A stretch of 64,000 nucleotides of DNA. It comes from Candidatus Nealsonbacteria bacterium (GTDB lineage: Bacteria > Patescibacteriota > Minisyncoccia > Minisyncoccales > RBG-13-42-11). Position numbers and translations under genes: made by a program. Within the stretch, counting starts at the first letter, position 1. The number at the start of each line of letters is the position of its first letter. The notes beneath the pieces were generated by a model, which saw only the letters and a list, made by a program, of their open reading frames with translations, made no database searches and was not told where the DNA came from. The DNA lies in the NCBI GenBank assembly GCA_026396115.1, contig JAPLXL010000002.1, positions 5,142 through 69,141 on the forward strand, read 5' to 3'. Positions 6,163-61,312 of this stretch are shown here, piece after piece.

Positions 6163-6252
6163 AAAAAATTCAAAATTCAAAAGTCAGAATGCGAAATTAC
6201 AATTTAAAATTCAAAACTTTTGAAGTTTCAAAAGTTTTTTATTTCTGTTTCA

Positions 6253-9874: not shown

Positions 9875-9946
9875 GTCCCTATAGCTTAATGGATAAAGCG
9901 CAACCCTCCGGAGGTTGAGATCTCCGTTCGACTCGGAGTAGGGACA
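9875..9946 (+). tRNA. tRNA-Arg (anticodon CCG), CCA not encoded
   Basis: Hand-folded cloverleaf: acceptor GTCCCTA/TAGGGAC, anticodon arm CAACC-CTCCGGA-GGTTG, T arm CTCCG-TTCGACT-CGGAG. Confidence 0.9.
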
Positions 9947-19220: not shown

Positions 19221-19223
19221 TGA

Positions 19224-19282
19224 GTCGAAGAGGACGAAGTCCTCTTCTTCACCTTCGCTTTCGCTGCGCGAAAGCTCGGTAT
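19224..19282. repeat. Family A type A2 variant filling the spacer upstream of polX
   Basis: GTCGAAGAGGACGAAGTCCTCTTCTTCACCTTCGCTTTCGCTGCGCGAAAGCTCGGTAT, followed directly by ATG. Confidence 0.9.
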
Positions 19283-21055
19283 ATGAAGAACCAAGAACTC
19301 GTCAAGATATTCTACGAAATTGCTGATTATCTCGAAATGGAAGAGGTAGCTTTCAAGCCTTACGCTTACCAAAAGGCAGCTATTACTTTAGAAACTTTAG
19401 AGGAAGATGTTGAAAAAATCTACAAAAAAGGAGGAGTTAAAGCCCTCGAAGAAATTCCCGGCGTAGGAAAAAGCATTGCGGAAAAAATTGAAGAATATTT
19501 AAAAACAGGGAGAATTAAATATTATGAAGAATTTAAAAAGAAGCTGCCTCTTAATTTGGGAGAAATAACTTCTGTTGAGGGAATGGGACCAAAAAAGGCA
19601 ATGGTTTTGTATCAAAAATTGGGGATTAAAAATCTAAAAGATTTGGAAAAAGCAGCCAGAGTCCATAAAATTGCTTTTTTGTTCGGTTTTGGCGAGAAAA
19701 CTGAAAAAAATATTTTAGAAGGGATTGCCTTTTTAAAAAAGAGCAAGGGAAGGTTTCTTTTGGGTGAAATTTTACCCCGGGTAAAAGAAATTTTAGAAAG
19801 ATTGGGAAAATTAAAAGAAATTGAACAGATTGATGCGGCCGGTTCTGTCAGGAGAATGAAAGAAACTATTGGCGATGTTGATATTTTAGTGGCTGTTAAG
19901 GAATCAAAAAAGCCCGCCTTCGCCAAAGCTTCAGCGGATAAAATAATGGATTTTTTTGTTCAATTGTCGGGAATAATTAAAGTTTGGATGAATGGTCCCA
20001 CCAAATCATCTGTTAGAATGGAACAAGGTTTTGATGTGGATTTGAGGGTGGTAAAAAAGAAAAGTTACGGCTCAGCCCTTCAATATTTTACAGGCTCAAA
20101 AGAGCACAACATCGTTACCAGAAGAATTGCCATAGAAAAAGGTTTGAAGCTTTCAGAATACGGTCTTTTTAAAGGAAAAAAGATGATCGCCGGTTGGTCC
20201 GAAGCTGGAATTTATAAAGCTCTTGGCCTTCCTTGGATTGAACCAGAATTGCGAGAAAATCAAGGAGAAATAGAAGCGGCCCTTCGACAAGCTCAGGGCA
20301 AACTCAATGGATTACCAAAATTGGTTGGTTACAAAGACATTAAAGGTGATTTGCATTGTCATTCTGATTGGGATGGCGGAGTAAATTCAATTGAAGAATT
20401 GGCAAGAGCAGCAAAAGATTTTGGTTATGAGTATTTGGGAATTGCTGACCACACAAAATTTTTAAGAATAGAACACGGGTTGGATGAAAGGAAATTAGAA
20501 TTGCGAAATAAAGAAATTGATAAACTTAACCAAAAATACAAAAATTTCAAAATTCTGAAAGGCGCTGAAACCAATATTTTAAACGACGGGTCAATTGATA
20601 TTAAAAATGAGGCCTTAAAAAAATTGGATTATGCTATTGCTGGAATTCATTCTAATTTCAAAATGGGAAAAACCGAAATGACAGAAAGAATAATTCGGGC
20701 AATGAAAAATCCCAATATTGATATTCTTTCTCATCCAACCGGGAGAATATTAAAAAGAAGAGACGAATATCTTTGCGACTTTGACAAAATCTTAAGAGTA
20801 GCTAAAGAATACAATGTAGTTTTGGAAATAAACGCTTTCCCTGAAAGATTGGATTTAAACGACCGGCACATTCGCCGAGCAAAAGAATCGGGAGTAAAAA
20901 TGGTTATTAACACCGACGCCCATTATAAAGACCAATTAAGATTTATAGAATTGGGTATTGCCCAGGCCAGGAGAGGCTGGGCAACTGCAGAAGATATTAT
21001 TAACACCCAATCATTAGAAAAATTACTAAAGTTTTTAGACAAAATATGCCAGTAG
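19283..21055 (+). CDS. polX: Family X DNA polymerase with C-terminal PHP domain (PolX)
   Basis: HhH motifs, GSVRRMKETIGDVDILV catalytic motif and PHP motif DLHCHSDWDGG. Start set at ATG 19283 (MKNQELVKIFYEIADYLE), since upstream codons are repeat DNA. Confidence 0.9.
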   Translation: MKNQELVKIFYEIADYLEMEEVAFKPYAYQKAAITLETLEEDVEKIYKKGGVKALEEIPGVGKSIAEKIEEYLKTGRIKYYEEFKKKLPLNLGEITSVEGMGPKKAMVLYQKLGIKNLKDLEKAARVHKIAFLFGFGEKTEKNILEGIAFLKKSKGRFLLGEILPRVKEILERLGKLKEIEQIDAAGSVRRMKETIGDVDILVAVKESKKPAFAKASADKIMDFFVQLSGIIKVWMNGPTKSSVRMEQGFDVDLRVVKKKSYGSALQYFTGSKEHNIVTRRIAIEKGLKLSEYGLFKGKKMIAGWSEAGIYKALGLPWIEPELRENQGEIEAALRQAQGKLNGLPKLVGYKDIKGDLHCHSDWDGGVNSIEELARAAKDFGYEYLGIADHTKFLRIEHGLDERKLELRNKEIDKLNQKYKNFKILKGAETNILNDGSIDIKNEALKKLDYAIAGIHSNFKMGKTEMTERIIRAMKNPNIDILSHPTGRILKRRDEYLCDFDKILRVAKEYNVVLEINAFPERLDLNDRHIRRAKESGVKMVINTDAHYKDQLRFIELGIAQARRGWATAEDIINTQSLEKLLKFLDKICQ

Positions 21056-22575: not shown

Positions 22576-22618
22576 ATCTAATTATTAATAGGTAATAATA
22601 AATAATCATTAATTTTTG

Positions 22619-22967
22619 TGGAGGCGGTGGGAATCGGACCCACATCTGAGGCGTTTTCCTAAAATAATTCTACGGGATTAGTCCAGTTTTTTCAAAAAGA
22701 TACAGAATTTAAAACGGACAAAATTTCTATATCTTGAATCCGAATATTTTTCAATAGTTTTTCCGGATTCTGAAAGAACTATTTTATCTCGCAAGATTAT
22801 GACACTCGATTTTACCTAGCGAGAATTAGTAAATCGAATGGCATTAAACGTATGCTAATGCAGGTTGTTTGAACAAGTTGGCACTTATTCTTTTTGTTAG
22901 TTTTTACAAGTTCTAACAACTTGGCCCGCTTATTTTAGTTCACTCCTCATCGAATCCTTTCACCCCC
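22619..22967 (-). ncRNA. ssrA: tmRNA (ssrA)
   Basis: The 5' end GGGGGTGAAAGGATTCGATGAGG pairs with the 3' CGCCTCCA acceptor, including a G3:U pair. T arm is GTGGG-TCCGATT-CCCAC. Candidate tag ORF at 22882-22844 reads ANLFKQPALAYV-stop. Adjacent to smpB. Confidence 0.85.
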
Positions 22968-23447: not shown

Positions 23448-25175
23448 ATGATCAGAGAAGAAATTAAAAAATTAATAGAAAAATCAATCAAGGAACTGCA
23501 AAAAGATAAAAAATTGCCTAAATTTGATATTCCCGAAATTAAGATTGAACATCCAGAAGAGAAAGTTCACGGTGATTATTCAACAAATGTTGCAATGGTG
23601 ATTGCTAAATTAGTCAGAAAAAACCCAATAGAAATTGCCAAACTGATAAATTGGAAATTGGAAATTGGAAATTGGAAATTCCTCAATAAGATTGAGGCGG
23701 TAGAACCAGGCTTTATTAATTTTTTTCTTTCTAATTCGGTCTTAACGAAGGAGTTGAAAATAATCTTAAAAGAGAAAGAGAAATATGGTTCGAGCAAAGT
23801 CGGAAAGGGAAAAACTGTTATTATTGATTATTCTAGCCCTAACATTGCCAAGCCTTTTGGTATTGGCCATTTGAGATCAACAATTATCGGTCAGGCCTTG
23901 TATAATATTTATAAATTTTTAGGATGGAAATGTATTGGCGATAACCATCTCGGAGATTGGGGAACTCAATTTGGCAAGTTGATAGTCGCAATAAAAAAAT
24001 GGAGAATGAAAGACTTTTCGGTCCGAGAATTAGAAAATCTTTATGTGAAATTTCATAAGGAGGCAGAGAAAAATCCTAAATTGGAAGAGGAGGCGAGAAG
24101 GGAATTTAAAAATTTGGAAAAAGGAGAAAAGACAGCAAGGAAAACTTGGAAAAAATGTGTTGAAATTTCATTAAAAGAGTTTGATAAAGTTTACAAACTT
24201 ATTGGGATAAAAATTGATTATGCTTTGGGAGAAAGTTTTTACCAGGGAATGTTTGAGGCAGTTGTTCAAGAAACAATAAAAAAAGAAATTGCCTTAAAAA
24301 GCCAAGGAGCTTTAGTTATTAAATATCCTAAGGACAAGCTTCCTCCGGCAATGTTGTTAAAATCGGATGGGGCAACCACTTACTTAACCAGGGATTTGGC
24401 AACAGTAAAATACAGGTTAAAAAAGTGGAAGCCAGATTTAATTATTTACGAAGTCGGAGCAGATCAGAAATTACATCTAAAGCAACTTTTTGAAGCGGTG
24501 GAGCTTTTGGGCTGGGCGAAGAGAACAGAATTTTTCCATGTTGCTCATGGACTTTATCGAACAAAGACAGGAAAATTTTCCACCAGAAAGGGAAAAACAA
24601 TTCATTTGGAAGAGGTTTTGAAAGAAGCAATAGAAAAAACGAGAGAAATCATTGAAAAATCAGAAACAGGCCAAGAGCTGTCAAAAGAAGAGAAAGAAAA
24701 AATCGCTAAAATAGTTGGAATTGGAGCAGTAAAATACAACGATTTATTTCAACATTACAGCAAGGACATAATTTTTGATTGGGATAAAATTTTAAATTTA
24801 AAAGGAAATTCCGCTCCTTACTTACAATACACTTTTGCTCGTTGTCAAAGTGTTTTGAAGAAAGCTAAATTAGAAACCGAACCGGAAAAAGTTGAAGTTT
24901 TAACCTTTAATAAAGAAGAAAAAGATATTTTGAGGGAAATTTATAAATTTCCAGAAATAGTTAAAGAAGCAGCTGATAGATTTTCTTCAAATTTAATCTG
25001 CAACTTCATTTTTGATTTAGCCCAAAAATATAATCTTTTTTACAATTTGCATTCTATTATTAAAGCTCAACCTGCCGAATTAAAAATTTTTCGTTTAACC
25101 ATAACTGCTTGCGTTGCTCAAGTTTTAAAAAACACTTTGAATTTGATTGGAATTTCAGCGCCTGAAAAAATGTAA
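23448..25175 (+). CDS. argS: Arginine--tRNA ligase
   Basis: 575 aa with SSPNIAKPFGIGHLRS (HIGH region) and an ArgRS-type C-terminal anticodon-binding domain. Confidence 0.95.
   Translation: MIREEIKKLIEKSIKELQKDKKLPKFDIPEIKIEHPEEKVHGDYSTNVAMVIAKLVRKNPIEIAKLINWKLEIGNWKFLNKIEAVEPGFINFFLSNSVLTKELKIILKEKEKYGSSKVGKGKTVIIDYSSPNIAKPFGIGHLRSTIIGQALYNIYKFLGWKCIGDNHLGDWGTQFGKLIVAIKKWRMKDFSVRELENLYVKFHKEAEKNPKLEEEARREFKNLEKGEKTARKTWKKCVEISLKEFDKVYKLIGIKIDYALGESFYQGMFEAVVQETIKKEIALKSQGALVIKYPKDKLPPAMLLKSDGATTYLTRDLATVKYRLKKWKPDLIIYEVGADQKLHLKQLFEAVELLGWAKRTEFFHVAHGLYRTKTGKFSTRKGKTIHLEEVLKEAIEKTREIIEKSETGQELSKEEKEKIAKIVGIGAVKYNDLFQHYSKDIIFDWDKILNLKGNSAPYLQYTFARCQSVLKKAKLETEPEKVEVLTFNKEEKDILREIYKFPEIVKEAADRFSSNLICNFIFDLAQKYNLFYNLHSIIKAQPAELKIFRLTITACVAQVLKNTLNLIGISAPEKM
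23648..23682. repeat. Heptanucleotide tandem array (AAATTGG x4 + AAATTCC) inside argS
   Basis: Read directly. Encodes NWKLEIGNWKF. Confidence 0.9.
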
Positions 25176-25780: not shown

Positions 25781-28678
25781 ATGGATAAGCTTTCTGAAAT
25801 AGAAAAAAAAGTATTAAATTTTTGGGAAAGGAACAAAATATTTGAGAAATCAATCAAAGAAAGAAAAGGAAAGCCTTTTTTCAGCTTTTATGACGGTCCC
25901 CCTTTTGCTACTGGTATTCCTCATTACGGCCACATTTTAGCGACGACCATAAAGGACACGGTTTTGCGCTACTGGACGATGAAAGGATATCAGGTCCCCA
26001 GAAGGGTTGGTTGGGACTGCCACGGCCTTCCGGTTGAAAATCTGATAGAAAAAGAATTGGGGATAAAAAGCAAAAGAGAGATTGAAGATCTGGGAATTGA
26101 AAAGTTCAACAAGCTCTGCAGAGATTCGGTCTTCAGATGCGTCAAGGAATTTGAAGTCACCCTAAAGAGAGTGGGCCGATGGGCCGACTACAAAAACTAT
26201 TATGCCACTCTGGACAACGACTATATTGAATCGGTCTGGTGGGTTTTCAGCCAGCTGTGGAAAGAAGGGCTGATCTACAAAGATTACAGAGTTAGTCCCT
26301 ATTGTCCCAGATGCGGTACTCCTCTTTCAAACTTTGAGGTTAATCAAGGATACAAAGACGTTAAGGACAATTCGATTTATGTAAAATTCAGGGTTAAGAG
26401 TTCCCGATTCAAAGGTTCCTATCTTTTGGCCTGGACCACGACTCCCTGGACTCTTCCCGGGAACGTCGCCTTAGCGGTTGACCCCAAAGCCAGCTACCTT
26501 TTGGTAAAAGAAGATGGGGAATCGCTGATTTTGGCTAAAGCCCGACTGTCCGTGCTTAAGGGAAAATATAAGATAATAAAGAAACTTAGGGGAAAAGAAT
26601 TGAAAGGCCTAAGATATGACCCCTTGTTTAACTGTTTAAGCGGAGTCCAAAATATTGAAAATGCTTTCCAAATTCTGCCAGCTTCCTTTGTTTCGACCAA
26701 CGAGGGGACGGGAATTGTCCACACTGCGGTGATGTACGGCGAAGATGACTTTCGCCTGGGCAGAAAGTATAATCTGCCTGCGCATCATACGGTTGACGAA
26801 TCGGGAAAGTTCAAGAAAGAGGTAGAGAAGTGGGCGGGCTGCTTTGTCAAGGACACAGAAGGAGAGATTACTGAGGATTTGAGTAAAAGAGGGCTTTTAT
26901 ACAAAAAAGAGGTTATCTTGCATTCTTATCCTTTTTGCTGGAGGTGCGATACGCCTCTGCTTTACTATGCTCTTAATACTTGGTATATTGGCGTTTCCAA
27001 AATTAAAAAGAACTTAATTGAAAATAACAAGAAGATCCGTTGGGTTCCGTCTCATATTAAAAGCGGAAGGTTTGGCAAATGGTTGAAGACTGCCAGGGAT
27101 TGGGCGTTTTCCAGGAATCGCTTCTGGGGCGCTCCGATTCCAATTTGGCAATGTAGAAAATGCGGAGAGTATAAGTGTATTGGCAGCACAAAAGAACTCG
27201 GCGTTAAATTAAAGGATTTGCATCGTCCGTATATTGATAAGATTGAACTAAAATGTAAGTGCGGTAGTAAAATGAAAAGAGTAGAGGAGGTTTTTGACTG
27301 CTGGTTTGAATCAGGGTCCATGCCCTATGCCCAAAGGCATTATCCTTTTGAAAACAAGAAGCTGGTTGAAAGCACATTTCCGGCCGATTTTATTGCCGAA
27401 GGACTGGACCAGACCAGGGGCTGGTTTTATACTCTCCACGTTCTCTCCTCAGCCCTTACTTTGAAAGATAGGGGGCTGGGAAAAAACAAGCCCGCCTTCA
27501 AAAATTCTATTGTCAACGGGATGATTTTAGATTCCCTGGGAAGAAAGCTAAGTAAAAAATTGAGCAATTATCCCGAAACTGGCGAAGTTTTTGAAAAGTA
27601 CGGGGCAGACTCCTTAAGGTATTTCCTTCTCTCTTCTACTCCGATAGGCGAGGATTATCTTTTCTCGGCCAAGGGAGTTGAAGACGCTTACCGAAAGGTT
27701 ATTTCTACTTTATGGCACAGTTATTCCTTCTTCGTAACCTATAAAGACAAGAACTTTAAGCCCAAGCACAGTTTCAAGGTTAATGATGAATTGAACAAAT
27801 GGATTCTTTCAAGACTCAATGCGACAAACAAAGAGGTCTCCTATTGGATGGATAGATACGAGCTTACCAGGGGATCCAGGCTTTTCACAAAATTCATGGA
27901 CGACCTTTCCAACTGGTATATCAGAAGGTCAAGAAGAAAATTCCAAAGAGCCAATAGTCATCGAGAGGGCGAAGAGGATAAATCCTCTTCTTCCCCCTTC
28001 GCTGCGGATCGGGAAAAAGAAGAAGCGTCGCAGGTCCTTTATCAAAGTCTGATGGTTTTGTGCAAAATGATGGCGCCTTTTACTCCTTTTGTGAGTGAAT
28101 ATATTTATCGAGCTCTAAAAATAAAGAAAGATCCGGAATCGGTCCATCTCTGTAATTATCCCAAACCCTTAAAGAGGCTTATTAATCCTGGACTAGAGAA
28201 GATGATGAAAAAAACAAGAGGGATTGTTGTTCTGGCTTTGGCTGAAAGAGCTAAAACAGGGATTAAGGTTCGTCAGCCGTTAAATAAATTGCGAATTGCG
28301 AATTATGAATTACAGAGAGAGAAAAAATTACTGGAGTTGATCAAGGACGAAGTAAATGTAAAAGAAATTAGTTTTGGCAAAACATTAAAATTGGACACTA
28401 AAATTACGCCAGAGCTTAAAGAAGAAGGCATAATTAGAGAAATTATCCGCCAAATTCAGGAAATGAGAAAGATGGCAGGTTATACACCAAAAGATATGAT
28501 TTCAATTCAATTTGATGGTTCGGAAAAGATAGCAGATATTTTAATAAAAAATAAAAATAAAATTATGGTGGAAACAAAGTCCCGAGATTTAAAATTGGGT
28601 AGGAAGGAGAAATTTAAAATTGAAAAAGAAGTAAAGGTCGACAATGAAAATTTATGGTTAGCAATTTTTAAAATTTAA
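25781..28678 (+). CDS. ileS: Isoleucine--tRNA ligase
   Basis: 965 aa with PFATGIPHYGH (HIGH), KLSKKLSN (KMSKS-like) and a CP1 editing domain. In-frame repeat at 27967-28013. Confidence 0.95.
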   Translation: MDKLSEIEKKVLNFWERNKIFEKSIKERKGKPFFSFYDGPPFATGIPHYGHILATTIKDTVLRYWTMKGYQVPRRVGWDCHGLPVENLIEKELGIKSKREIEDLGIEKFNKLCRDSVFRCVKEFEVTLKRVGRWADYKNYYATLDNDYIESVWWVFSQLWKEGLIYKDYRVSPYCPRCGTPLSNFEVNQGYKDVKDNSIYVKFRVKSSRFKGSYLLAWTTTPWTLPGNVALAVDPKASYLLVKEDGESLILAKARLSVLKGKYKIIKKLRGKELKGLRYDPLFNCLSGVQNIENAFQILPASFVSTNEGTGIVHTAVMYGEDDFRLGRKYNLPAHHTVDESGKFKKEVEKWAGCFVKDTEGEITEDLSKRGLLYKKEVILHSYPFCWRCDTPLLYYALNTWYIGVSKIKKNLIENNKKIRWVPSHIKSGRFGKWLKTARDWAFSRNRFWGAPIPIWQCRKCGEYKCIGSTKELGVKLKDLHRPYIDKIELKCKCGSKMKRVEEVFDCWFESGSMPYAQRHYPFENKKLVESTFPADFIAEGLDQTRGWFYTLHVLSSALTLKDRGLGKNKPAFKNSIVNGMILDSLGRKLSKKLSNYPETGEVFEKYGADSLRYFLLSSTPIGEDYLFSAKGVEDAYRKVISTLWHSYSFFVTYKDKNFKPKHSFKVNDELNKWILSRLNATNKEVSYWMDRYELTRGSRLFTKFMDDLSNWYIRRSRRKFQRANSHREGEEDKSSSSPFAADREKEEASQVLYQSLMVLCKMMAPFTPFVSEYIYRALKIKKDPESVHLCNYPKPLKRLINPGLEKMMKKTRGIVVLALAERAKTGIKVRQPLNKLRIANYELQREKKLLELIKDEVNVKEISFGKTLKLDTKITPELKEEGIIREIIRQIQEMRKMAGYTPKDMISIQFDGSEKIADILIKNKNKIMVETKSRDLKLGRKEKFKIEKEVKVDNENLWLAIFKI
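27967..28013. repeat. Family A type A1 element, in-frame in ileS
   Basis: GGGCGAAGAGGATAAATCCTCTTCTTCCCCCTTCGCTGCGGATCGGG. Confidence 0.92.
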
Positions 28679-29858: not shown

Positions 29859-30015
29859 GGCGAAGAGGACTTCGTCCGTCGAGTCAAAGACGAGACGAAA
29901 GAAGAAAAACTTTTCTTCGCACTCTTATTCACCTTCGCTTCCATAGTCGAAAGAGAATTTCATTCTCTTTCTCACCTTCGCTTCCTTCGGAAGCTCGGTA
30001 ATGGAAGCTCGGTAT
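29859..30015. repeat. Left inverted-repeat arm (family A2 with nested insertions)
   Basis: Positions 29860-29945 are the reverse complement of 31706-31791 (85/86 by hand alignment). A 54-nt extra family A module lies at 29946-29999. Confidence 0.9.
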
Positions 30016-31692
30016 ATGAAAAAATTTACTATTTTTGTCATTATTTTAACCGTGATAGTTGGGATTTTTGGTTTTTATTATTATCAAAGGAATATTTACT
30101 CAAAAGATATTTTAAGATTGGAAATTTTGGGCCAAGAAGAGACAGAGTTGCTTCAGGAGATTAAATATATTGTAAAGTATAAGAACAACGGAAACGTCAG
30201 GTTGGAAGAGCCGGAGCTCATTTTTGATTATCCTTCTTATTCTATACCCGCAGACGGAACGTCCTTAAGGGTTATTAAAAAATCGGAAGAATTGGGAGGA
30301 GTTATTTATCCCGGCCAGGAAAAAACTTTTACTTTTACAGCCAGGCTTATGGGCCGAGAGGGAGAAATTAAAGAGGCTCAAGTCACATTATCGTATCGAC
30401 CAAAGAATTTAAAAGCTCGTTATGAATCAAAAACTTCATTTACGACAATAATAAAAAAAGTTCCTCTCAATTTTGATTTTGATTTGTCTGCAAAAATTGA
30501 GTCCGGAAAAGAATTAAAATTTAGGTTAAATTATTTCTCGAATGTAGATTATCCGCTTTCCGGCTTGACAATAATGATTGATTATCCTTCAGGTTTTGAA
30601 TTTATTGATTGTACCCCAAAATCTTTAGAAAAAACTGAATGGGATCTTGAGCTTTTGAATAAAGCTGAAGGAGGAAGAGTCGAAATCTCGGGTAAACTGA
30701 TAGGTGAAGTTGGGGAAGAAAAAGTTTTTCGAGCAAGAATAGGCACTTGGCAAGACGGCGAGTTTATTTTGTTAAGGGAAGCAGCCAGAGGAATAACCAT
30801 TATTAGACCGGCTTTATACATTACTCAGCAGATTAACAACAATCCTAAATTTATAGCCAGTCCCGGCAACTTGCTTCATTATGAAATTTTCTTTAAAAAT
30901 ATTGGTGAAGAATTTTTAAGCGATATGTTTTTGCTGGTCACTTTAACCGGTTCAGCCTTTGATTTTAAGACAGTTCAAGCGCCGGAAGGAGATTTTACTC
31001 CGGGAGACAATTCCATAATTTGGGATTGGAGAAAGGTAAGAGATCTCCAGCTTTTGCCCCCTCAATCAGAGGGCAAGATTGAGTTTTGGGTGAAATTGAA
31101 AGATGAATGGGAAATTAAAGGTTTAGAAGACAAAAATCCTGAAATTCTGAGCACAATTTTTTTAAGCCAAGTTAAAGAAGAATTTGTCAATAAGGTTAAT
31201 TCAAAATTAATTGTTTCGCAAAAAGGATACTTTAGCGATGAAGTTTTTGGAAATGTCGGCCCTTTTCCTCCTAAGATTGGAGAAACCACAACTTATACAA
31301 TTATTTGGCAGGTTAAGAACTATTATAACGAGATGAAAGATGTAAAAGTCAAAGCCACTCTGCCCAAAAATGTAAATTTAACCGGTAAAATTTTCCCCGA
31401 AGCAGAAGTTGACAAAATTACTTTTGATTCGCAATCCCGGGAGATAGTTTGGAATGTTGGCGATTTAATGGTTGGACAAGGAGTTTTAAATCAGGGTCCC
31501 AATATTTCTTTCCAGATCGCTTTTTTGCCTGAAGAAAATCAAAAAGGAGAAACTCCGGAATTAATTAGTCAAGCAAAAATTATTGGTCAAGACCAATGGA
31601 CCGGCGAAATCCTCCAGTCTACAGCTTCTTTCATTGACACAACTCTGCAAGACGACCAAGCCATTGCTCCCGGCTCAGGAGTTGTTCAATAA
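30016..31692 (+). CDS. Membrane-anchored multi-beta-sandwich (CARDB/DUF11-like) surface protein, bracketed by inverted repeats
   Basis: N-terminal TM helix (FTIFVIILTVIVGIFGFYYY) followed by repetitive beta-rich segments. Start set at ATG 30016, since the upstream 5 codons are repeat DNA. Confidence 0.6.
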   Translation: MKKFTIFVIILTVIVGIFGFYYYQRNIYSKDILRLEILGQEETELLQEIKYIVKYKNNGNVRLEEPELIFDYPSYSIPADGTSLRVIKKSEELGGVIYPGQEKTFTFTARLMGREGEIKEAQVTLSYRPKNLKARYESKTSFTTIIKKVPLNFDFDLSAKIESGKELKFRLNYFSNVDYPLSGLTIMIDYPSGFEFIDCTPKSLEKTEWDLELLNKAEGGRVEISGKLIGEVGEEKVFRARIGTWQDGEFILLREAARGITIIRPALYITQQINNNPKFIASPGNLLHYEIFFKNIGEEFLSDMFLLVTLTGSAFDFKTVQAPEGDFTPGDNSIIWDWRKVRDLQLLPPQSEGKIEFWVKLKDEWEIKGLEDKNPEILSTIFLSQVKEEFVNKVNSKLIVSQKGYFSDEVFGNVGPFPPKIGETTTYTIIWQVKNYYNEMKDVKVKATLPKNVNLTGKIFPEAEVDKITFDSQSREIVWNVGDLMVGQGVLNQGPNISFQIAFLPEENQKGETPELISQAKIIGQDQWTGEILQSTASFIDTTLQDDQAIAPGSGVVQ

Positions 31693-31791
31693 CCGAGCTT
31701 CCATTTATGGAAGCGAAGGTGAAGAAGAGTGCGAAGAAAAGTTTTTCTTCTTTCGTCTCGTCTTTGACTCGACGGACGAAGTCCTCTTCGC
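31691..31791. repeat. Right inverted-repeat arm (family A2 with one nested insertion)
   Basis: See the left arm. It starts inside the stop codon of the bracketed gene. Confidence 0.9.
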
Positions 31792-35621: not shown

Positions 35622-36320
35622 ATGGCAATTCTTTATATCGTTGCAACTCCCATTGGCAATCTTAAAGATATCAGCCTCCGAACTTTAGAAGTTTTAAAGG
35701 AGGTTGATTTAATTTTGTGCGAAGATACAAGGACAACTAAAAAACTGCTAGACCGTTATCAAATAAAGACCTTGATACTTAGCTATCACCAGCATTCAAA
35801 AATCCAAAAGATTGAATATATCTTACAGCTCTTAAAAGAAGGCAAAAATTTGGCTTTGGTTTCAGATGCCGGCACTCCCGGGATTTCTGACCCGGGAAAT
35901 AAATTAGTTCAAGAAGTTATTAAGTCATTAAGTGATCAAGTGGAAATTGTGCCGATTCCCGGACCTTCGGCAGTTGCTGCAGCCGCTTCCATTTCCGGCT
36001 TTCCAATGGACAAATTTTTATTTTTGGGCTTTCCGCCAACAAAAAAGAAAAGAAAAAAATTTTTTGAAGAAGTTATAAATTCGAAATACCCAGTAATTCT
36101 TTACGAATCCCCTTATCGAATTCTAAAAACTCTGCAAGAGATTCGTTTAACGTTCAGCGTTCATAGTTCATCGTTCAAAATTGTGGTCGGCCGCGAATTA
36201 ACTAAAAAATTTGAAACAATTTATCGCGGAACGATTGAAGAAGTAATCGAAAAAATCAAAAATCCGCCAGCTGGCGCAAAAATCAAAGGCGAATTTATAG
36301 TAATTGTTAACTCAAAGTAA
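35622..36320 (+). CDS. rsmI: 16S rRNA (cytidine1402-2'-O)-methyltransferase
   Basis: LYIVATPIGNLKDISLRTLEVLKEVDLILCEDTR is a typical RsmI N-terminus. Confidence 0.9.
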   Translation: MAILYIVATPIGNLKDISLRTLEVLKEVDLILCEDTRTTKKLLDRYQIKTLILSYHQHSKIQKIEYILQLLKEGKNLALVSDAGTPGISDPGNKLVQEVIKSLSDQVEIVPIPGPSAVAAAASISGFPMDKFLFLGFPPTKKKRKKFFEEVINSKYPVILYESPYRILKTLQEIRLTFSVHSSSFKIVVGRELTKKFETIYRGTIEEVIEKIKNPPAGAKIKGEFIVIVNSK

Positions 36321-37798
36321 TGACAGAAAAAAAGAAAAAATTTTATATTACTACTACTCTTCCTTATGTTAATGCTGAACCGCATATTGGTTTCGCTTTA
36401 GAGATTATTCATGCAGATGTAATTGCTCGTTATTATCACCAACAGGGTTACGAAGTTTTTTTCAACACCGGTGTAGACGAACATGGACTTAAAATTTTTC
36501 GTAAAAGCCAAGAAAAAAATTTAAAACCTCAAGCCTATTGCGATATCTATGCTAAGAGATATAAGAATTTAAAACAGGCTTTAAATTTAAGCTACAACAG
36601 TTTTATTCGCACAACCGATCCGCATCATATTAAAGCAGCCCAGGAATTCTGGCGTCGTTGTGATAAAAACGGAGATATTTACAAAAAGGATTATAAAATT
36701 AAGTACTGCGTAGGTTGTGAATTGGAAAAGACCGAGTCAGAATTAGTTGAGGGCGGATGTCCTATTCATCCTGACGAGAAGTTGGAAATTATTAAAGAAG
36801 AGAATTATTTTTTTCGTTATTCAAGATATCAAGATAAGCTTCTAGAATTATATCAAAAAAATCCTCAATTTGTTGTGCCAGAATCCAGACTAAACGAAAT
36901 TGAAGAGTTTACTAAACGGGGATTGGAGGATTTTAGTATTTCTCGACTGAAGGAAAAAATGCCCTGGGGCATTCCTGTACCAGGGGATGATAAACATATA
37001 ATCTATGTTTGGTTTGACGCATTGATAAATTATATTTCTTGTTTGGGCTGGCCTGATAGTTTAGAAAAGTTCGATCATTTTTGGCCGGGTGTTCAGATAG
37101 CTGGAAAAGATAATCTCCGTCAGCAATCTTCTATGTGGCAGGCTATGCTTATATCAGCCGGTCTCTCGATATCCGAACAGATTTTTATTCACGGCTTTAT
37201 AACCTCTGGTGGTCAAAAAATGTCAAAGAGTTTGGGGAATGTTGTCAGTCCGTTTGAATTAGTTGAAAAATACGGCACAGATACTGTTAGGTATTTTCTT
37301 TTGCGGGAAATTCCATCAACCGAAGATGGTGATTTTACTTATGAAAAATTTGAACAGAGATACAATTCGGATTTGGCTAAAGGATTAGGAAATCTTATTG
37401 CGCGGGTAGTTACCCTTGCTAAAAATTCTAAATTCGAAATCCCAGATCTTCACCCGCCAAAATTTTCAAAGAAAACTTGGGCGGGCAGACAAATCCAAAA
37501 TCCTAAATTCAAAACAATAATAAACAAAACTCAGGAAAACTACAGAAAAGCTTTAGAGGAATTTAGATTTAACGAAGCATTGATTGAGATTTGGGATTTA
37601 ATTAGTTTTTGTGACAAATACATTGAAAAAGAAAGGCCTTGGGAAGAAAGTAAAAACCAAAAAGAGGTAATCGGTAATTTGTTATTGGTCCTCAATGAAA
37701 TAGCAAAATTATTGCAGCCATTTTTGCCAGAAACCTCGGAAAAGATATTTCAGCAATTGAAAACAAGAAAAAGCAAGCCATTATTTCCGAGAATTTAA
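36320..37798 (+). CDS. metG: Methionine--tRNA ligase
   Basis: YITTTLPYVNAEPHIGF (HIGH region) and KMSKSLGN. Contains a family B element at 37421-37515. Confidence 0.95.
   Translation: MTEKKKKFYITTTLPYVNAEPHIGFALEIIHADVIARYYHQQGYEVFFNTGVDEHGLKIFRKSQEKNLKPQAYCDIYAKRYKNLKQALNLSYNSFIRTTDPHHIKAAQEFWRRCDKNGDIYKKDYKIKYCVGCELEKTESELVEGGCPIHPDEKLEIIKEENYFFRYSRYQDKLLELYQKNPQFVVPESRLNEIEEFTKRGLEDFSISRLKEKMPWGIPVPGDDKHIIYVWFDALINYISCLGWPDSLEKFDHFWPGVQIAGKDNLRQQSSMWQAMLISAGLSISEQIFIHGFITSGGQKMSKSLGNVVSPFELVEKYGTDTVRYFLLREIPSTEDGDFTYEKFEQRYNSDLAKGLGNLIARVVTLAKNSKFEIPDLHPPKFSKKTWAGRQIQNPKFKTIINKTQENYRKALEEFRFNEALIEIWDLISFCDKYIEKERPWEESKNQKEVIGNLLLVLNEIAKLLQPFLPETSEKIFQQLKTRKSKPLFPRI
37421..37515. repeat. 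Family B element (heptamer-flanked AT-loop hairpin), in-frame in metG
   Basis: AAAATTC TAAATTC GAAATCC ... CCCGCC-AAAATTTTCAAAGAAAACTTG-GGCGGG ... AAATCCA AAATCCT AAATTCA. Confidence 0.8.
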
Positions 37799-38328: not shown

Positions 38329-39156
38329 ATGTTGATAGACACTCACGCCCATTTGAATTTTAATGCCTATAAAGATGATCTAGATGAAGTTATCAAGCGT
38401 TCTTTGGATAATAAGGTCTGGATGATAAATGTCGGCTCTCAATATGAAACCAGTAAAAAGGCGGTAAAAATTGCAGAGCAATATGAGAAAGAAGTTTATG
38501 CGGCGGTCGGTCTTCACCCAATTCACTTATCAGACGGAATTTTTAAGACGAAAATAGATCAAGAAGAAATAGAATTTCAAACTAGAGAAGAGGATTTTGA
38601 TTATCAAAAATATAAAGAGCTTGCCCGGTCTAAAAAAGTAGTGGCCATTGGCGAAATTGGGTTTGATTATTGGTATAAACCAAAAACAAAGAAGAAATTG
38701 GAAGAGTTTAAGCAAAAACAAAAAGAAGTTTTTTTGCAGCAATTAGAATTAGCCAGAGAATTGGGCTTGCCGGTTATATTTCATTGTCGTATGGCTCACG
38801 ATGACTTATTAGAAACATTAAATTTTCAATTTTCAAGTTTCAAGTTTCGTGGTGCGATTCACTGCTTTACCGGGAATTGGCAGCAAGCCGAAAGATATCT
38901 GGAAATGGGGCTTTATCTCGGTTTTAACGGCATCATTTTCAAATTAGATTTGGATGAAATTATAAAGAAAACTCCTTTAGAAAAAATTCTAATTGAGACC
39001 GATTGTCCTTATTTAACACCGCCCCCGATGATCGATCGTAATGAACCTTTATATGTAAAATATATTGCCGAAAAGGTTGCCAAAATAAAAAATTTAAATT
39101 ATGAAAAAGTATCCAATATTACGACCGAAAACGCCAGAAAACTATTTAATATTTAA
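38329..39156 (+). CDS. tatD: TatD family hydrolase
   Basis: MLIDTHAHLNF, GEIGFDY and ETDCPYL motifs. Confidence 0.9.
   Translation: MLIDTHAHLNFNAYKDDLDEVIKRSLDNKVWMINVGSQYETSKKAVKIAEQYEKEVYAAVGLHPIHLSDGIFKTKIDQEEIEFQTREEDFDYQKYKELARSKKVVAIGEIGFDYWYKPKTKKKLEEFKQKQKEVFLQQLELARELGLPVIFHCRMAHDDLLETLNFQFSSFKFRGAIHCFTGNWQQAERYLEMGLYLGFNGIIFKLDLDEIIKKTPLEKILIETDCPYLTPPPMIDRNEPLYVKYIAEKVAKIKNLNYEKVSNITTENARKLFNI
38821..38848. repeat. Heptanucleotide array (AATTTTC x2, AAGTTTC x2) inside tatD
   Basis: Read directly. Encodes NFQFSSFKF. Confidence 0.85.
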
Positions 39157-39161
39157 TTAAT

Positions 39162-41561
39162 ATGGAAAATTATAAGCCCCAAGGAATTGAGAAAAAATGG
39201 CAGAAGATTTGGGAAAGAAGAAAAACTTTTCAAGTTAATTTAAAAAAAGCGAAAAAACCCTATTATAACTTGATGATGTTTCCTTATCCTTCGGCTGAGG
39301 GTCTGCATGTTGGCAACGTCTATGCTTTTACTGGTTCAGATATTTATGGAAGATTCCGAAAAATGCAGGGCTATGATGTTTTTGAGCCGATTGGTTTTGA
39401 TGCCTTTGGTATTCATTCTGAAAATTTTGCCATTCAAAAAAAGATTCACCCCAAGGTTTTAATTCAAAAAAATGTTAATAATTTCAGGCGACAACTAAAA
39501 AATCTTGGTTGTCTTTTTGATTGGAGGTACGAGGTAGATACGACAAAGCCCAATTACTATACATGGACGCAATGGCTGTTTTTGCAGTTATTTAAGTCAG
39601 GTCTGGCTTATCGGAAAAAAGCGCCGGTTGACTGGTGCCCTTCTTGCAAAACCGTTTTGGCCGATGAGCAGGTAATTGACGGGAAATGCGAAAGGTGCGA
39701 CACGAATGTTATTCAAAAAGAATTAGAGCAATGGTTTTTTAAAATTACCAAATACGCGGAAAGATTGCTCAAAAACCTTGATTGGATTAATTGGTCGGAG
39801 AGAACAAAAGTTGCCCAAAAAAATTGGATAGGACGATCTGAGGGCGCTCAGATTGAATTCAAAATTCAAAATTCGAAATTCAAAATTCCAGTTTTTACCA
39901 CGCGGCCCGACACCCTTTTCGGGTGCACTTATTTAATTATTTCTCCGGAACATCGATTAATTGAAAATTTAAAATTAAAAATTAAAAATTGGGACGAAGT
40001 CCAGAAATACATTAAAGAATCAAAGAAAAAAACCGAGTCAGAGAGAACAGAACTTATTAAAGAAAAAACCGGAGTGGAATTAAAAAGAATTAAAGCTGTT
40101 AATCCGGCTAATCAAGAAGAAATTCCCGTTTTTGTGGCTGATTATGTTTTAGTTTCTTATGGCACCGGCGCAATCATGGCGGTTCCCGGCCATGATCAGA
40201 GAGATTTTGATTTTGCCAAAAAATATAATTTGTTGATTGTTGAGGTAATTAGTCCAGACGGTAAAGAACATATTCTTACAGAATCCTATACGGGTGAAGG
40301 GATTTTGATAAATTCCGGAAAGTTTAATGGAATAGAATCAGAAAAAGCAAAATTGGAAATTACAAAGTTTGTCAAAGCCAAAAAAGCCGTTAATTATCAT
40401 CTAAGAGATTGGTTGATTTCTAGGCAGCGTTATTGGGGACCGCCCATACCCATAATTTATTGTAAAAAATGCGGAATAGTTCCGGCGTCGGAAAAAGATT
40501 TGCCAATAGAACTTCCTCATGTAAAAAATTTCCGGCCAGCCGGCGCCGGAAAATCACCCTTGGCTTCAGTTCCGAATTTTGTAAAAACAAAATGCCCGAA
40601 GTGCAAAGGGCCGGGTCAAAGGGAAACCGATGTTTCAGATACTTTCTTGGATTCTTCTTGGTACTTCTTCAGATATCCTTCGGCTAATTTGAAGAATTCA
40701 CCCTTTGACAAAAAATTGACTGAAAAATGGCTGCCGGTTGATATGTACATTGGCGGGCAGGAGCATGCGGTCTTGCATTTGCTTTACACCAGATTTATGA
40801 CTATGGTTTTAAAGGATTTAAGCCATATTAATTTTGAAGAGCCGTTTAAAAAATTCCGGGCCCATGGATTGTTAACCAAAGAAGGAACCAAAATGTCAAA
40901 ATCAAAAGGGAATGTGGTTAATCCCGATGACTATTATAAAAAATACGGCGCCGATACTTTGAGAATGTATTTAATGTTTTTGGGGCCGTTTTCAGAAGGC
41001 GGTGATTGGCAGGACAGGGGGATTATGGGAACTTACAGGTTTTTGAATAAAGTTTGGAACTTGCGATCAAAAGTGAATTATGGATTAAGCATAAAGAATA
41101 AAGAATTAGATAGATTGATTCATAAAACAATTAAGAAAGTGACGGAAGATATTGAAAATTTAAAATACAATACTGCAATTTCGGCTTTAATGATATTAGC
41201 CAACGAATTGGAAAAAGAAGAAAAAATATCCTCGGAGTATTATTCATTATTCTTAATTCTTTTAGCTCCTTTTGCGCCGCATATTACAGAAGAACTTTGG
41301 CAGAAATTGGGACATAAAGAAAGTATTTCTTTGGAGAAATGGCCCGAGCCCAGGCCAGAATTACTCAAAGAAGAGAAAATAACCTTGATTATCCAGGTTA
41401 ATGGCAAGGTCCGAGATAAGATTGAGGTTTCGGCTGATATTTCTAAAGAAAAAGCCAGGGACCTGGCAGTTTCTCAAAAAAAGATTAAGAATTGGGTGGA
41501 AGGCAAAGAAATCAAGAAAGTAATTTTTGTCCCGAATAAACTTATTAATATAGTCATTTAA
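39162..41561 (+). CDS. leuS: Leucine--tRNA ligase
   Basis: 799 aa with PYPSAEGLHVGN (HIGH), KMSKSKGN and the TTRPDTLFG editing-domain motif. Confidence 0.95.
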   Translation: MENYKPQGIEKKWQKIWERRKTFQVNLKKAKKPYYNLMMFPYPSAEGLHVGNVYAFTGSDIYGRFRKMQGYDVFEPIGFDAFGIHSENFAIQKKIHPKVLIQKNVNNFRRQLKNLGCLFDWRYEVDTTKPNYYTWTQWLFLQLFKSGLAYRKKAPVDWCPSCKTVLADEQVIDGKCERCDTNVIQKELEQWFFKITKYAERLLKNLDWINWSERTKVAQKNWIGRSEGAQIEFKIQNSKFKIPVFTTRPDTLFGCTYLIISPEHRLIENLKLKIKNWDEVQKYIKESKKKTESERTELIKEKTGVELKRIKAVNPANQEEIPVFVADYVLVSYGTGAIMAVPGHDQRDFDFAKKYNLLIVEVISPDGKEHILTESYTGEGILINSGKFNGIESEKAKLEITKFVKAKKAVNYHLRDWLISRQRYWGPPIPIIYCKKCGIVPASEKDLPIELPHVKNFRPAGAGKSPLASVPNFVKTKCPKCKGPGQRETDVSDTFLDSSWYFFRYPSANLKNSPFDKKLTEKWLPVDMYIGGQEHAVLHLLYTRFMTMVLKDLSHINFEEPFKKFRAHGLLTKEGTKMSKSKGNVVNPDDYYKKYGADTLRMYLMFLGPFSEGGDWQDRGIMGTYRFLNKVWNLRSKVNYGLSIKNKELDRLIHKTIKKVTEDIENLKYNTAISALMILANELEKEEKISSEYYSLFLILLAPFAPHITEELWQKLGHKESISLEKWPEPRPELLKEEKITLIIQVNGKVRDKIEVSADISKEKARDLAVSQKKIKNWVEGKEIKKVIFVPNKLINIVI
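39854..39888. repeat. Heptanucleotide tandem array (RAAATTC x5) inside leuS
   Basis: TGAATTC AAAATTC AAAATTC GAAATTC AAAATTC. Encodes EFKIQNSKFKI. Confidence 0.9.
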
Positions 41562-45546: not shown

Positions 45547-47247
45547 ATGTTTGAAAATATCCTACAAAATAAAACAGAAAAAAAAGTGATTCTTTTGGGA
45601 AATGAAGCGATTATCAGGGGCGCTTTGGAAGTAGGCGTTGATTTTGTTTCTACTTATCCCGGTACGCCGGCTTCCGAAATCGGAGACATTTTTTTTAAAT
45701 TATCTCAAAGTAAAGATTATAAGGGTTATTTTGAGTTTTCCACCAATGAAAAAGTGGCCTTGGAAGCAGGAATTGGAGCTAGTTTTTCCGGTTTGAAAAC
45801 CTTGGTGGCAATGAAAAATTTTGGCGCAAATGTGGCTTTAGATGCTTTAATCCCTTTTGTTTATACCGGCTCAAAGGGGCCGACAGTCATTCTAGTGGCT
45901 GATGATCCTTCCTGTCATAGTTCGGCTCAATCCGAAGAGAATTCTCGGGGATTGGCTTATTTAGCTCACATTCCAATTTTAGAACCATCGGATCCTCAGG
46001 AGTGCAAGGACTTTGTAAAATTAGCTTTTCAGATTTCTGAAAAATTCAAAATACCGGTAATAATAAGAACTACCACCAGAGTGGCTCATCAGCGCGCTTT
46101 AGTAAAATTAGAAAAAATTAAGATAGGTCGGGCTGCTGGATTTTTTAAGAAAGATCCGAAGAAATTTGTCACTTTACCGCCAAGAGTTTTAGAAATGAAA
46201 AAAGAGCTCTTGGAAAAAATAGAAAAAATCAGAGAATTTTCCGAAAAATCTGAAATAAATAGAAGAATAAATAGAGGACGGGTCTCTATTAGCTCAAAAG
46301 TGGGCATAATTACTTCAGGGGTTTCTTATTTATATGTCATGGAAGTGTTAAAGGAGTTTAATTTAAAATTACCGCTATTAAAACTCGGATTTTTTTATCC
46401 TTTGTCGGAAAAGAAAATTCAAAATTTTATCAAAAATCTTAAAAAAGTTTTAATAGCAGAAGAATTGGAACCCTATTTGGAAAAAGAAGTTGAAAGATTA
46501 GCCAAAGAAGTAAATTGTAAATTAGAAATAATAGGAAAAAAATTACTTCCCGAAGTCGGCGAACTTAGACCGGAAATTGTCGCCTCAGCCATTGCGAAAT
46601 TCACTAATGATAAATTGAAAATTGAAAATTTTGCTCTCCAAAATTTTTGTAAAACAAAAACTTGGGAGAGTGATAAATTGAAAATTCCGAGGCGTTCACC
46701 TCGGCTCTGTCCCGGTTGTCCTTATTGGTTGGTTATTTCAGCGATAAAAAAGGTCCTTCGACACGGCTCAGGGCAAGCGGTTAAAGATGTAATTTTCGGG
46801 GGAGAAATCGGTTGTTACATGTTATTCGGCACACTGGCTGTTAATATGCAGGATTATTTATCTTGTATGGGTTCCTCGGTTGGAATTGCTCATGGGATTC
46901 AAAAGGCAACTGGCCAAAAACTAATTACTTTTGTTGGTGACTCATCTTTCTTTCATAGCGGCATTCCTGCTTTAATAAATACTGTTTTTAACAAATCAAA
47001 CCCCTTGATTATTATTTTGGAAAATCAAACCACGGCCATGACCGGCCATCAACCCCATCCCGGAGCGCCTGTATTTCCTAATGGAATTAAAATAGAAAAT
47101 ATTGTTCAAGCTTGTGGAGTAAAGCATTTTAAGGTAATTGATCCAATTAATCAGAAAGAATTTGTTGATACCGTAAAAAGTTTCTTAGAGAAACCTGAGG
47201 TTTCGGTAATTATTTCAAGAAGACCATGCATTCAAATAAAAAAATAA
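45547..47247 (+). CDS. iorA: Indolepyruvate/2-oxoacid:ferredoxin oxidoreductase alpha subunit (TPP-binding)
   Basis: LLGNEAIIRGALEVGVDFVSTYPGTPASEI, CPGCPYW and GDSSFFHSG TPP motifs. Contains a family B element at 46591-46690. Confidence 0.8.
   Translation: MFENILQNKTEKKVILLGNEAIIRGALEVGVDFVSTYPGTPASEIGDIFFKLSQSKDYKGYFEFSTNEKVALEAGIGASFSGLKTLVAMKNFGANVALDALIPFVYTGSKGPTVILVADDPSCHSSAQSEENSRGLAYLAHIPILEPSDPQECKDFVKLAFQISEKFKIPVIIRTTTRVAHQRALVKLEKIKIGRAAGFFKKDPKKFVTLPPRVLEMKKELLEKIEKIREFSEKSEINRRINRGRVSISSKVGIITSGVSYLYVMEVLKEFNLKLPLLKLGFFYPLSEKKIQNFIKNLKKVLIAEELEPYLEKEVERLAKEVNCKLEIIGKKLLPEVGELRPEIVASAIAKFTNDKLKIENFALQNFCKTKTWESDKLKIPRRSPRLCPGCPYWLVISAIKKVLRHGSGQAVKDVIFGGEIGCYMLFGTLAVNMQDYLSCMGSSVGIAHGIQKATGQKLITFVGDSSFFHSGIPALINTVFNKSNPLIIILENQTTAMTGHQPHPGAPVFPNGIKIENIVQACGVKHFKVIDPINQKEFVDTVKSFLEKPEVSVIISRRPCIQIKK
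46591..46690. repeat. Family B element, in-frame in iorA
   Basis: GATAAATTGAAAATTGAAAATT ... CTCTCC-AAAATTTTTGTAAAACAAAAACTTG-GGAGAG ... GATAAATTGAAAATTCC. Confidence 0.8.
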
Positions 47248-54936: not shown

Positions 54937-55022
54937 TGGTGCCGCGGGAGAGAGTTGAACTCTCATGAGGTTGCCCTCGATAGATTTTGAATCTATTGCG
55001 TCTGCCATTTCGCCACCGCGGC
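54937..55022 (-). tRNA. tRNA-Leu (anticodon CAA), CCA encoded
   Basis: Hand-folded: acceptor GCCGCGG/CCGCGGC, anticodon arm ATAGA-TTCAAAA-TCTAT, long variable arm, T arm GAGAG-TTCAACT-CTCTC, 3' ACCA. Confidence 0.9.
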
Positions 55023-61140: not shown

Positions 61141-61260
61141 TTTTTTTATTATATCATTTACTGAGCTTTTATGTAATAAAGTTCAAAGAGATAAATCTCT
61201 TTTTCATCTTCGTTTTCGCTGTGCGAAAACTTGATAAATGAAGAAGAATGAATATTCTTC
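61141..61260. repeat. ~120-bp module upstream of pth (copy 2)
   Basis: Same orientation and same position relative to the downstream ATG as copy 1. Confidence 0.9.
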
Positions 61261-61312
61261 GCCTACCCGAGCCGCAGCGAAGGGGGAAGAAGAGGATTTA
61301 TCCTCTTCGCCT
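61261..61312. repeat. Family A type A1 element (intergenic reference copy)
   Basis: GCCTACCCGAGCCGCAGCGAAGGGGGAAGAAGAGGATTTATCCTCTTCGCCTAC. Confidence 0.92.

Follow-up and report, generated by a model that had tools for sequence, protein, structure and literature searches.

Why should two unrelated housekeeping genes of one bacterium carry closely similar hairpins, in frame, within their coding sequences? The question is raised by a 64,000-nt stretch of DNA from a Candidatus Nealsonbacteria bacterium (GenBank assembly GCA_026396115.1, contig JAPLXL010000002.1, positions 5,142 to 69,141; this whole stretch is called the window, and positions are counted from its first letter). Within it, metG, which encodes methionyl-tRNA synthetase (MetRS), and an iorA-like gene each contain a short hairpin with an AT-rich interior and flanking repeats. 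The original prediction held that the two belonged to one family and were shaped by selection on secondary structure. Our analysis indicates that both are probably copies of a small imperfect-palindrome DNA element, specific to the Candidate Phyla Radiation (CPR, or Patescibacteria), that is selfish and insertional and is tolerated at harmless sites.

Two related hairpins within metG and iorA

The metG copy was located at 37452-37486 on the plus strand of the MetRS gene (36320-37798, +; 492 aa; Pfam tRNA-synt_1g, E=2e-97; PDB 2csx, E=4.6e-125). Read directly in the sequence it is A-CCCGCC-AAAATTTTCAAAGAAAACTTG-GGCGGG-C, or, divided into its parts, ACCCGCC-AAAATTTT-C-AAA-G-AAAACTTG-GGCGGGC, and it encodes LHPPKFSKKTWAG, approximately MetRS residues 377-389. 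The iorA copy occupies 46633-46671 (+) in the gene for an indolepyruvate/2-oxoacid:ferredoxin oxidoreductase alpha subunit (IorA; 45547-47247, +; 566 aa; Pfam POR_N and TPP_enzyme_C), whose product is identical to protein P0121 of a Candidatus Nealsonbacteria metagenome-assembled genome (MAG). The hairpin itself was read as CTCTCC-AAAATTTTTGTAAAACAAAAACTTG-GGAGAG at 46634-46670, with the parts G-CTCTCC-AAAATTTT-TG-TAAAA-CA-AAAACTTG-GGAGAG-T, and encodes ALQNFCKTKTWES.

Both hairpins stand where the original prediction had placed them, with flanking repeats. In metG, heptamers of the AAATYCN type lie on both sides: AAAATTC TAAATTC GAAATCC CAGATCT on the left (37422-37449, +) and CAAATCC AAAATCC TAAATTC AAAACAA on the right (37490-37517, +; Tandem Repeats Finder (TRF) reports period 7 over 37491-37514). 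The iorA copy is flanked by a 16-nt heptamer-type direct repeat, TGATAAATTGAAAATT, at 46608-46623 (+; TRF, period 7 over 46612-46630) and by its exact copy at 46671-46686 (+).

The pattern AAAATTTT-N(3-20)-AAAACTTGGG matched the window exactly twice and was absent from 100 shuffles, in agreement with a single family. Covariance-model matches covered 37449-37489 in metG (57.4 bits, E=2e-13) and 46630-46674 in iorA (54.0 bits, E=1.8e-12), and an unfiltered scan of the 64 kb revealed no third copy, all else scoring 14 bits or less. The two basal stems had been described as completely different yet complementary; complementary they are, but CCCGCC and CTCTCC differ at only two of six positions, both compensated (G-C versus T-A and C-G versus T-A). 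The proposed common reading frame likewise applies to the 3' arm, which is AAA ACT TGG (KTW) in both genes, and not to the 5' arms, which are one base out of register (CCA AAA TTT versus CAA AAT TTT) because the metG and iorA interiors differ by 4 nt.

In the sense RNA, the helix of each copy contains two mismatches, A.G and A.C, whereas that of the complementary strand contains one C.U mismatch and a G.U pair. The opposite strand folds at -19.9 kcal/mol versus -14.3 for the sense strand in metG, and at -17.1 versus -15.9 kcal/mol in iorA. Intrinsic (Rho-independent) terminators were considered and rejected; both copies are internal to open reading frames (ORFs), and neither is terminator-like on either strand.

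A hairpin family restricted to CPR bacteria

Scans of genomes and metagenomes yielded about 55 further unique copies beyond the window, all in CPR bacteria; a lack of further copies, which would have spoken against the original prediction, was thus not observed. The genome scan, with one genome per species and the pattern CCAAAATTTT-N(1-16)-AAAACTTGGG, returned 103 loci. CPR restriction was tested on the four bases outside CC/GG, which the search pattern left free. All four were complementary in 12 of 22 CPR-labelled matches (Saccharibacteria, Parcubacteria-type groups, Gracilibacteria and others) and in four of five unlabelled 'bacterium' MAGs, compared with none of the 76 non-CPR matches, whose distribution was chance-like. 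A metagenome scan in which only the right outer stem was fixed added 53 loci, and the left outer stem was complementary in nearly all of them. Covariance model R1 found extra copies that the pattern had missed in other loci, including a second one in MurD of locus L042 and a variant in the MetRS gene of L162. Two matches on viral contigs lacked the outer stem and were set aside as chance-like, giving no hint of a phage vector.

The family consensus is TTYRCCCK-CC-AAAATTTT-[2-3 bp stem, 3-nt loop]-AAAACTTG-GG-MGGGYRAA, with a core of 35-41 nt (mode 37), or about 43-47 nt when the A/T-rich foot is included. The metG copy fits it exactly; the iorA copy departs from it by a single double change, C-G to T-A. 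Members of at least three CPR classes have the motif arms and the RCCCK/MGGGY outer stem, as do copies in contexts of normal G+C content.

Covariation was examined in 23 distinct sequences, in which the arms fixed by the search pattern are uninformative. Pair 8-40 was GC in 11 sequences and UA in nine; pair 19-29 was CG in eight, UA in seven, GC in six and AU in two, and was never unpaired. The covariation score was 0.206 versus 0.104 for column shuffles, none of 500 of which reached the observed value, and slid registers gave 0.05 or less. Among 54 copies, outer positions 1-4 were Watson-Crick in 47-51, the apical stem comprised 102 Watson-Crick and 10 wobble pairs, and the loop was 3 nt long in 42. 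An imperfection at a fixed place in the helix (C.U, U.U, or AU opposite G) was retained even in the variants that the pattern missed, which suggests a recognised feature rather than decay.

Host genes, reading frames and orientation

More than half of the copies were found within long ORFs, in frame in at least 20 unrelated housekeeping genes. The hosts include PNPase, KsgA, RNase HII, ValRS-type synthetases, MurD (twice), a DegT-type aminotransferase, an ABC-F ATPase, HemK, an FtsQ-like protein, a NiFe-hydrogenase-like protein, a family-11 glycosyltransferase and a TraG-like tail. In alignments with PDB entries the element appeared as a clean gap, adding 21 aa to PNPase, about 10 to KsgA and 13 to MurD. 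All three reading frames were used (...KTW[AE]G, ...KLGR[AV] and ...NLGG), and every ORF copy seen preserved the frame. Most cores measure 37 nt, a length not divisible by 3, and the inserts lengthen their hosts by differing amounts (36, 39 and 60 nt), a pattern to be expected if out-of-frame events are lost. At L143, where two long ORFs overlap at the hairpin, a frame-breaking insertion or ribosomal bypass was considered and rejected; the hairpin lies in a disordered C-terminal TraG/VirD4-like tail, and the next gene starts downstream.

Outside proteins, the element forms the V1 helix of one Gracilibacteria 16S rRNA, a helix at the periphery of group I introns (assigned in L161 at the Rfam gathering score and in L019 by flank similarity) and part of a 23S-5S spacer, and intergenic copies are also present. 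An assignment of the L019 hairpin to 16S rRNA was rejected, the Rfam alignment being spurious and the flanks matching the group I intron context of L161. The CPR 16S genes were themselves seen to be expanded by insertions (L098:35-3132; L019; L161:173-424), that of L098 measuring 3.1 kb against a 1.5-kb model.

In one MAG, the copies on contigs L024 and L093 are identical through the otherwise variable apical loop, and MurD of L042 carries two copies 170 nt apart; these cases point to recent intragenomic copying. On the sense strand of ORFs, the CCAAAATTTT...AAAACTTGGG orientation was observed in about 24 independent cases versus about three in the opposite one. In 50 of 52 copies the RNA of this orientation folds less stably than its complement, the mean difference being 4.2 kcal/mol, and the orientation lies on the G-rich strand at 29 of 41 loci, including 16 of the 22 copies outside long ORFs. 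The bias fits any of three explanations: strand-specific insertion, as in single-stranded DNA (ssDNA) transposition; selection against strong transcript hairpins; or selection for a more hydrophilic peptide.

Two ORFs with copies have unusual translations. A 504-codon low-complexity ORF (L124:5364-6875, -) contains one intact copy together with decayed look-alikes (TTFAPQNLNGQ, NNFSKENLSGQ, TNFEGQNLNGQ), and from its sequence the protein looks as if it were largely built from repeated insertions of the element. The ValRS-like host at L111:2331-5120 has, by eye in translation, an apparent histidine-phosphatase (PGM-like) domain (FLVRHGETDWN...) within the synthetase.

Presence, absence and replacement at the MetRS and IorA sites

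Orthologue alignments showed that the hairpins add length to both host proteins, a point that the original prediction had left to such alignments. Among 120 MetRS orthologues of 66-80% identity, the site, at the junction of the catalytic domain and the anticodon-binding helices, was hypervariable. From the closest relatives, P0002-P0006, the hairpin is missing, and P0005 has FEIRNSKQIRNSKFKT where the window MetRS has FEIPDLHPPKFSKKTWAGRQIQNPKFKT. At the DNA level, metG of L106 (80% identical), the closest orthologue without the hairpin, contains a continuous, uninterrupted heptamer array, with a 36-nt gap exactly at the hairpin. A variant hairpin in the same place and orientation was found in P0007 (L162), centred in (CAATTTC)3 / hairpin / (CAATTTC)3. 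Neither of the two, the window MetRS (P0001) and P0007, has the other as its nearest relative, and the proteins closest to each are hairpin-free; more than one gain or loss of the element must therefore have taken place at the MetRS site. L163 was not used as an empty-site control, its MetRS being only 51% identical and probably of a different lineage.

The IorA linker preceding the PKRxPxLCPGCPYW motif has about 11 residues in the simplest orthologues and is heptamer-coded in many (KLKIENSLKIENWKLKI). Among genes that are 95% identical at the nucleotide level, three unrelated inserts are found at one codon position, with GAAAATT-type flanks common to all (window 46608-46686, L104:1619-1688 and L105:2013-2060). 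One of the two alternative inserts is a double G+C-rich hairpin, and L106 has no insert at the site. No donor copies of the inserts from L104 and L105 were found in the sequences compared.

In the AlphaFold model of MetRS (mean pLDDT 89), the sole segment below 50 was residues 377-389 (LHPPKFSKKTWAG), between two helices. The IorA model was weaker (mean 71.8), and residues 357-387, a low-confidence linker, were also below 50. Both predictions agree with the insert being a tolerated disordered loop. In the syntenic relative L163, the IorB gene (L163:11686-12318) was seen to carry a 21-aa in-frame insert with a -29 kcal/mol hairpin, from one of the other G+C-rich palindromic families described below; the window IorB is without it.

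Heptamer arrays and other repeats in the window

Five exact period-7 tandem runs were present in the window versus none in 30 Markov simulations, and no runs were found at periods 8-13. Heptamer arrays (AAATTGG, AATTCAA, AAAATTA, AAATTGA and ATTTTTG) lie at 23648-23680, 39856-39888, 39959-39990, 46612-46630 and 56492-56513, with others at 6165-6216, 36143-36177 and 38824-38848. All five exact runs and most other arrays, including those in LeuRS, are ORF-internal even though the 7-nt period is not divisible by 3; in LeuRS the arrays replace ordinary sequence and leave the length unchanged. The repeat unit differs by locus (AAATTCN, GAAAATT, CAATTTC).

Heptamer flanks had been taken for a family trait, and this did not hold: period-7 flanks accompany only about four of 55 copies. 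A comparison of the flanks of these 55 copies led us to reject both heptamers and a fixed target-site duplication as family features. The longest string common to both flanks averaged 5.2 nt versus 4.8 nt in controls and reached at least 8 nt in only six of the 55, all in low-complexity or heptamer contexts; the longest, at 15-16 nt, was the TGATAAATTGAAAATT pair around the iorA hairpin. The arrays mark insertion-prone, hypervariable loops, and they may be the cause, the attractor or the result of the insertions.

On the minus strand of metG, a long hairpin (-37.5 kcal/mol, z = -6.7) was judged to be a by-product of the heptamer array, its stability arising because RRAUUUN heptamers self-pair through G.U. 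No such self-pairing is seen for the heptamers of iorA (GAAAATT), L117 or L153.

Other repeats were noted in the window. G+C-rich palindromic families distinct from the element (CGAAGAGGA...TCCTCTTCG, CCCGAGCSGYAGCGAAGGG and others) have many copies in long ORFs, at 35-91, 1601-1657, 4448-4553, 19221-19297, 27961-28025, 31686-31791, 56506-56577 and 61255-61311. An 86-nt inverted repeat (29860-29945 / 31706-31791, 99% complementary) brackets about 1.76 kb and could delimit a segment that is mobile or invertible. Terminator-like hairpins with T-runs were in about 3-fold excess between 36000 and 48000 (31 versus 10.5 +/- 3.7 in shuffles), many of them ORF-internal; one, CCGAGGCGTTCACCTCGG at 46687-46704, directly adjoins the iorA element and encodes PRRSPR.

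Discussion

The hairpins of metG and iorA belong to a family that is restricted to CPR bacteria, polymorphic for insertion, independent of reading frame, covarying in its stem and located in loops. We consider a selfish insertional element the probable explanation. Such an element would be inserted or copied into new sites, and purifying selection would act as a filter, so that copies would persist only at harmless in-frame or non-coding positions. In proteins, these would be surface loops and inter-domain linkers, where a copy would be translated as a disordered loop of 12-21 residues; elsewhere, they would be intergenic DNA and rRNA spacers or, in structured RNA, the variable helices of group I introns and 16S rRNA. 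For its own propagation, and not for any need of the host mRNA, the element would keep its hairpin shape and the conserved imperfection. In the Nealsonbacteria-type genome of the window, the element lies within heptamer tandem arrays, which mark hypervariable loops prone to insertion.

The distribution of copies suggests active mobility. One conceivable route, which we put forward tentatively and with some doubt, is that the hairpin is recognised as ssDNA by a trans-acting mobilising enzyme, as for REP/RAYT or IS200/IS605 ends. This route is favoured because target-site duplications and terminal inverted repeats are lacking, the imperfection is conserved and the strands are used unequally.

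Several observations weigh against a selfish insertional element. A gene for a transposase or any other mobiliser did not come to light, and no genome-wide search was made for one, the sequence covered being the 64-kb window and loci of about 8 kb. The 55 copies showed no consistent target-site duplication and no terminal inverted repeats apart from the hairpin. [quoted passage not shown] Selection acting on mRNA stability or on the peptide could likewise account for the orientation bias. Near-identical sequence over deep CPR lineages requires horizontal spread or strong constraint, and most copies were gathered with a pattern that fixed both AT-rich arms, so that arm invariance exists by construction and diversity is under-sampled.

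Spread by recombination was also considered, with scattered heptamer arrays serving as micro-homology through which gene conversion or illegitimate recombination swaps hairpins between loci. For the Nealsonbacteria loci this is a live alternative. Both window copies and those of L162, L055/L153 and L117 lie between direct heptamer repeats, the iorA hairpin stands within an exact 16-nt flank duplication, the three IorA inserts share identical (GAAAATT)n flanks in genes that are 95% identical, and exact period-7 runs are in excess of simulation in the window. As an account of the whole family it is nonetheless unlikely: about 50 of the 55 copies, in other CPR genomes, are without heptamer flanks or any flank repeat above chance, the differences in heptamer unit limit homology between arrays, and the window showed no donor locus. 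A more elaborate scheme, quite unlikely in our estimation, would join the arrays and interchangeable hairpins in an enzyme-driven hypervariable-cassette system of CPR bacteria. A structure-specific enzyme would move hairpins of about 40 nt in and out by 7-nt staggered cuts, each cycle leaving a heptamer footprint that builds the array, and the loci would turn into hotspots at which hairpin families were swapped within 5% divergence, continually remodelling surface loops of essential proteins.

Selection on structure rather than on protein, as originally proposed, stands in so far as conservation acts at the level of nucleotide and helix, given the use of three frames, the copies in rRNA, introns and spacers, and the covariation; a structure selected by the host in mRNA is not needed. 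Under that explanation the hairpins would pause ribosomes at domain boundaries, stabilise transcripts or form an RNase site, and the stems would covary for this reason. Several insertion sites do lie at domain junctions, such as the MetRS catalytic/anticodon-binding boundary and the IorA linker, and in rRNA and introns the copies do without doubt form RNA helices. However, the hairpin is present or absent among close orthologues and can be replaced by unrelated inserts, the host genes are unrelated and without common regulation, and the sense strand nearly always bears the weaker fold. The sense fold of the 95-100-nt regions in the window is unexceptional (z = -1.7 and -1.8), and Rfam 15 gave no match at gathering score at the hairpin sites; its matches in the window were a tmRNA (22616-22967, -) and two tRNA genes (9875-9946, +; 54940-55022, -), all elsewhere, ordinary and unrelated to the hairpins. 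We regard a host-selected mRNA structure as improbable.

Local origin would have template switching or slippage in AT-rich, low-complexity loops make palindromes de novo, the likeness of copies being convergent. The sites are indeed low-complexity and slippage-prone, and template switching gives complementary arms without selection. It is not credible that a motif of about 30 nt, with asymmetric arms (AAAATTTT versus AAAACTTG) and the RCCCK/MGGGY stem, arose independently in at least three CPR classes, and the same internal imperfection recurs in copies outside the search pattern, leaving this origin very improbable. An ancestral or functional peptide with a PPKF..KTWAG motif under protein-level selection, suggested by the similar C-terminal halves of the window peptides (KTWAG and KTWES), is refuted by orthologue alignments and frame usage, given that the nearest orthologues are without the segments, the same DNA occurs in three frames and in non-coding RNA, and the insert is predicted to be disordered.

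The CPR element resembles several known systems, some in behaviour and others, such as REPs, in size and shape. Rickettsia palindromic elements (RPE; Ogata et al. 2000) occur in frame in many housekeeping genes (as summarised in PMC10969869). Like them, the CPR element is a palindromic repeat in frame in many unrelated housekeeping ORFs and also in non-coding regions, yields on translation an additional segment at the protein surface that fold and function can accommodate, and belongs to a genome with several such families. RPEs are about 100-150 bp long, whereas the core of the CPR element is far shorter and adds 12-21 aa; each RPE family encodes a conserved peptide with one preferred frame, whereas the CPR element uses all three; and RPEs are confined to Rickettsia, whereas the CPR element spans several CPR classes and also forms 16S V1 and group I intron helices. 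With a CPR host, membership among the RPEs is implausible, and the likeness is one of behaviour only.

REPs and REPINs, which are associated with RAYT (Y1 HUH) transposases, are extragenic, typically number hundreds per genome and have GTAG or CGTC as a tag at their foot. The CPR element shares with them an imperfect, G+C-footed hairpin of 20-40 nt with a conserved helix imperfection, the lack of target-site duplications and terminal inverted repeats, and occurrence in either orientation with a strand bias. It differs in its foot, which is TTYRCCCK/MGGGYRAA (CTTGCCC on the other strand) with no GTAG or CGTC; palindromes with these tags are the topic of PMC3733652. It is also largely intragenic and sparse, at about one copy per 30 kb.

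Organelles offer close ecological parallels. Hairpin elements there include the double-hairpin elements of Allomyces and the 'byps' of Magnusiomyces, the byps breaking the frame and being bypassed by the ribosome. Mobile hairpins of mitochondria also include the GC clusters of yeast (PMC4478555) and the repetitive hairpin-forming elements of sponges (PMC2800124). These elements and the CPR element are tiny mobile hairpins in intergenic DNA, variable rRNA and protein genes of compact AT-rich genomes, with several families and recurrent insertion hotspots. The organellar sequences are unrelated to the CPR element, and the byps are frame-breaking whereas the CPR copies in ORFs are in frame. MITEs, finally, are likewise non-autonomous, palindromic and sometimes intragenic with in-frame fusion, as in the QMITEs of Coxiella (PMC5896051). 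They are 50-500 bp long, with terminal inverted repeats derived from insertion sequences and a fixed target-site duplication. The whole CPR element is one hairpin with no terminal inverted repeats besides, and its flanks showed no fixed target-site duplication. Literature searches of incomplete coverage found no earlier description of the element in CPR bacteria, so an earlier account is possible.

Selfish palindromes translated within essential genes have for 25 years been a Rickettsia curiosity with scattered organellar analogues. The same behaviour is now seen in a much smaller element across the CPR, a large and poorly understood diversity of bacteria with tiny genomes. The element explains part of the odd insertions in CPR proteins, 16S rRNA and introns, and it warns against treating such segments as homologous protein sequence in annotation and phylogenetics. 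Its consensus and covariance model provide a handle for tracing horizontal exchange among CPR bacteria and for finding a putative mobilising enzyme, and the IorA hotspot, with three inserts within period-7 arrays in genes that are 95% identical, hints at an uncharacterised process at the DNA level.

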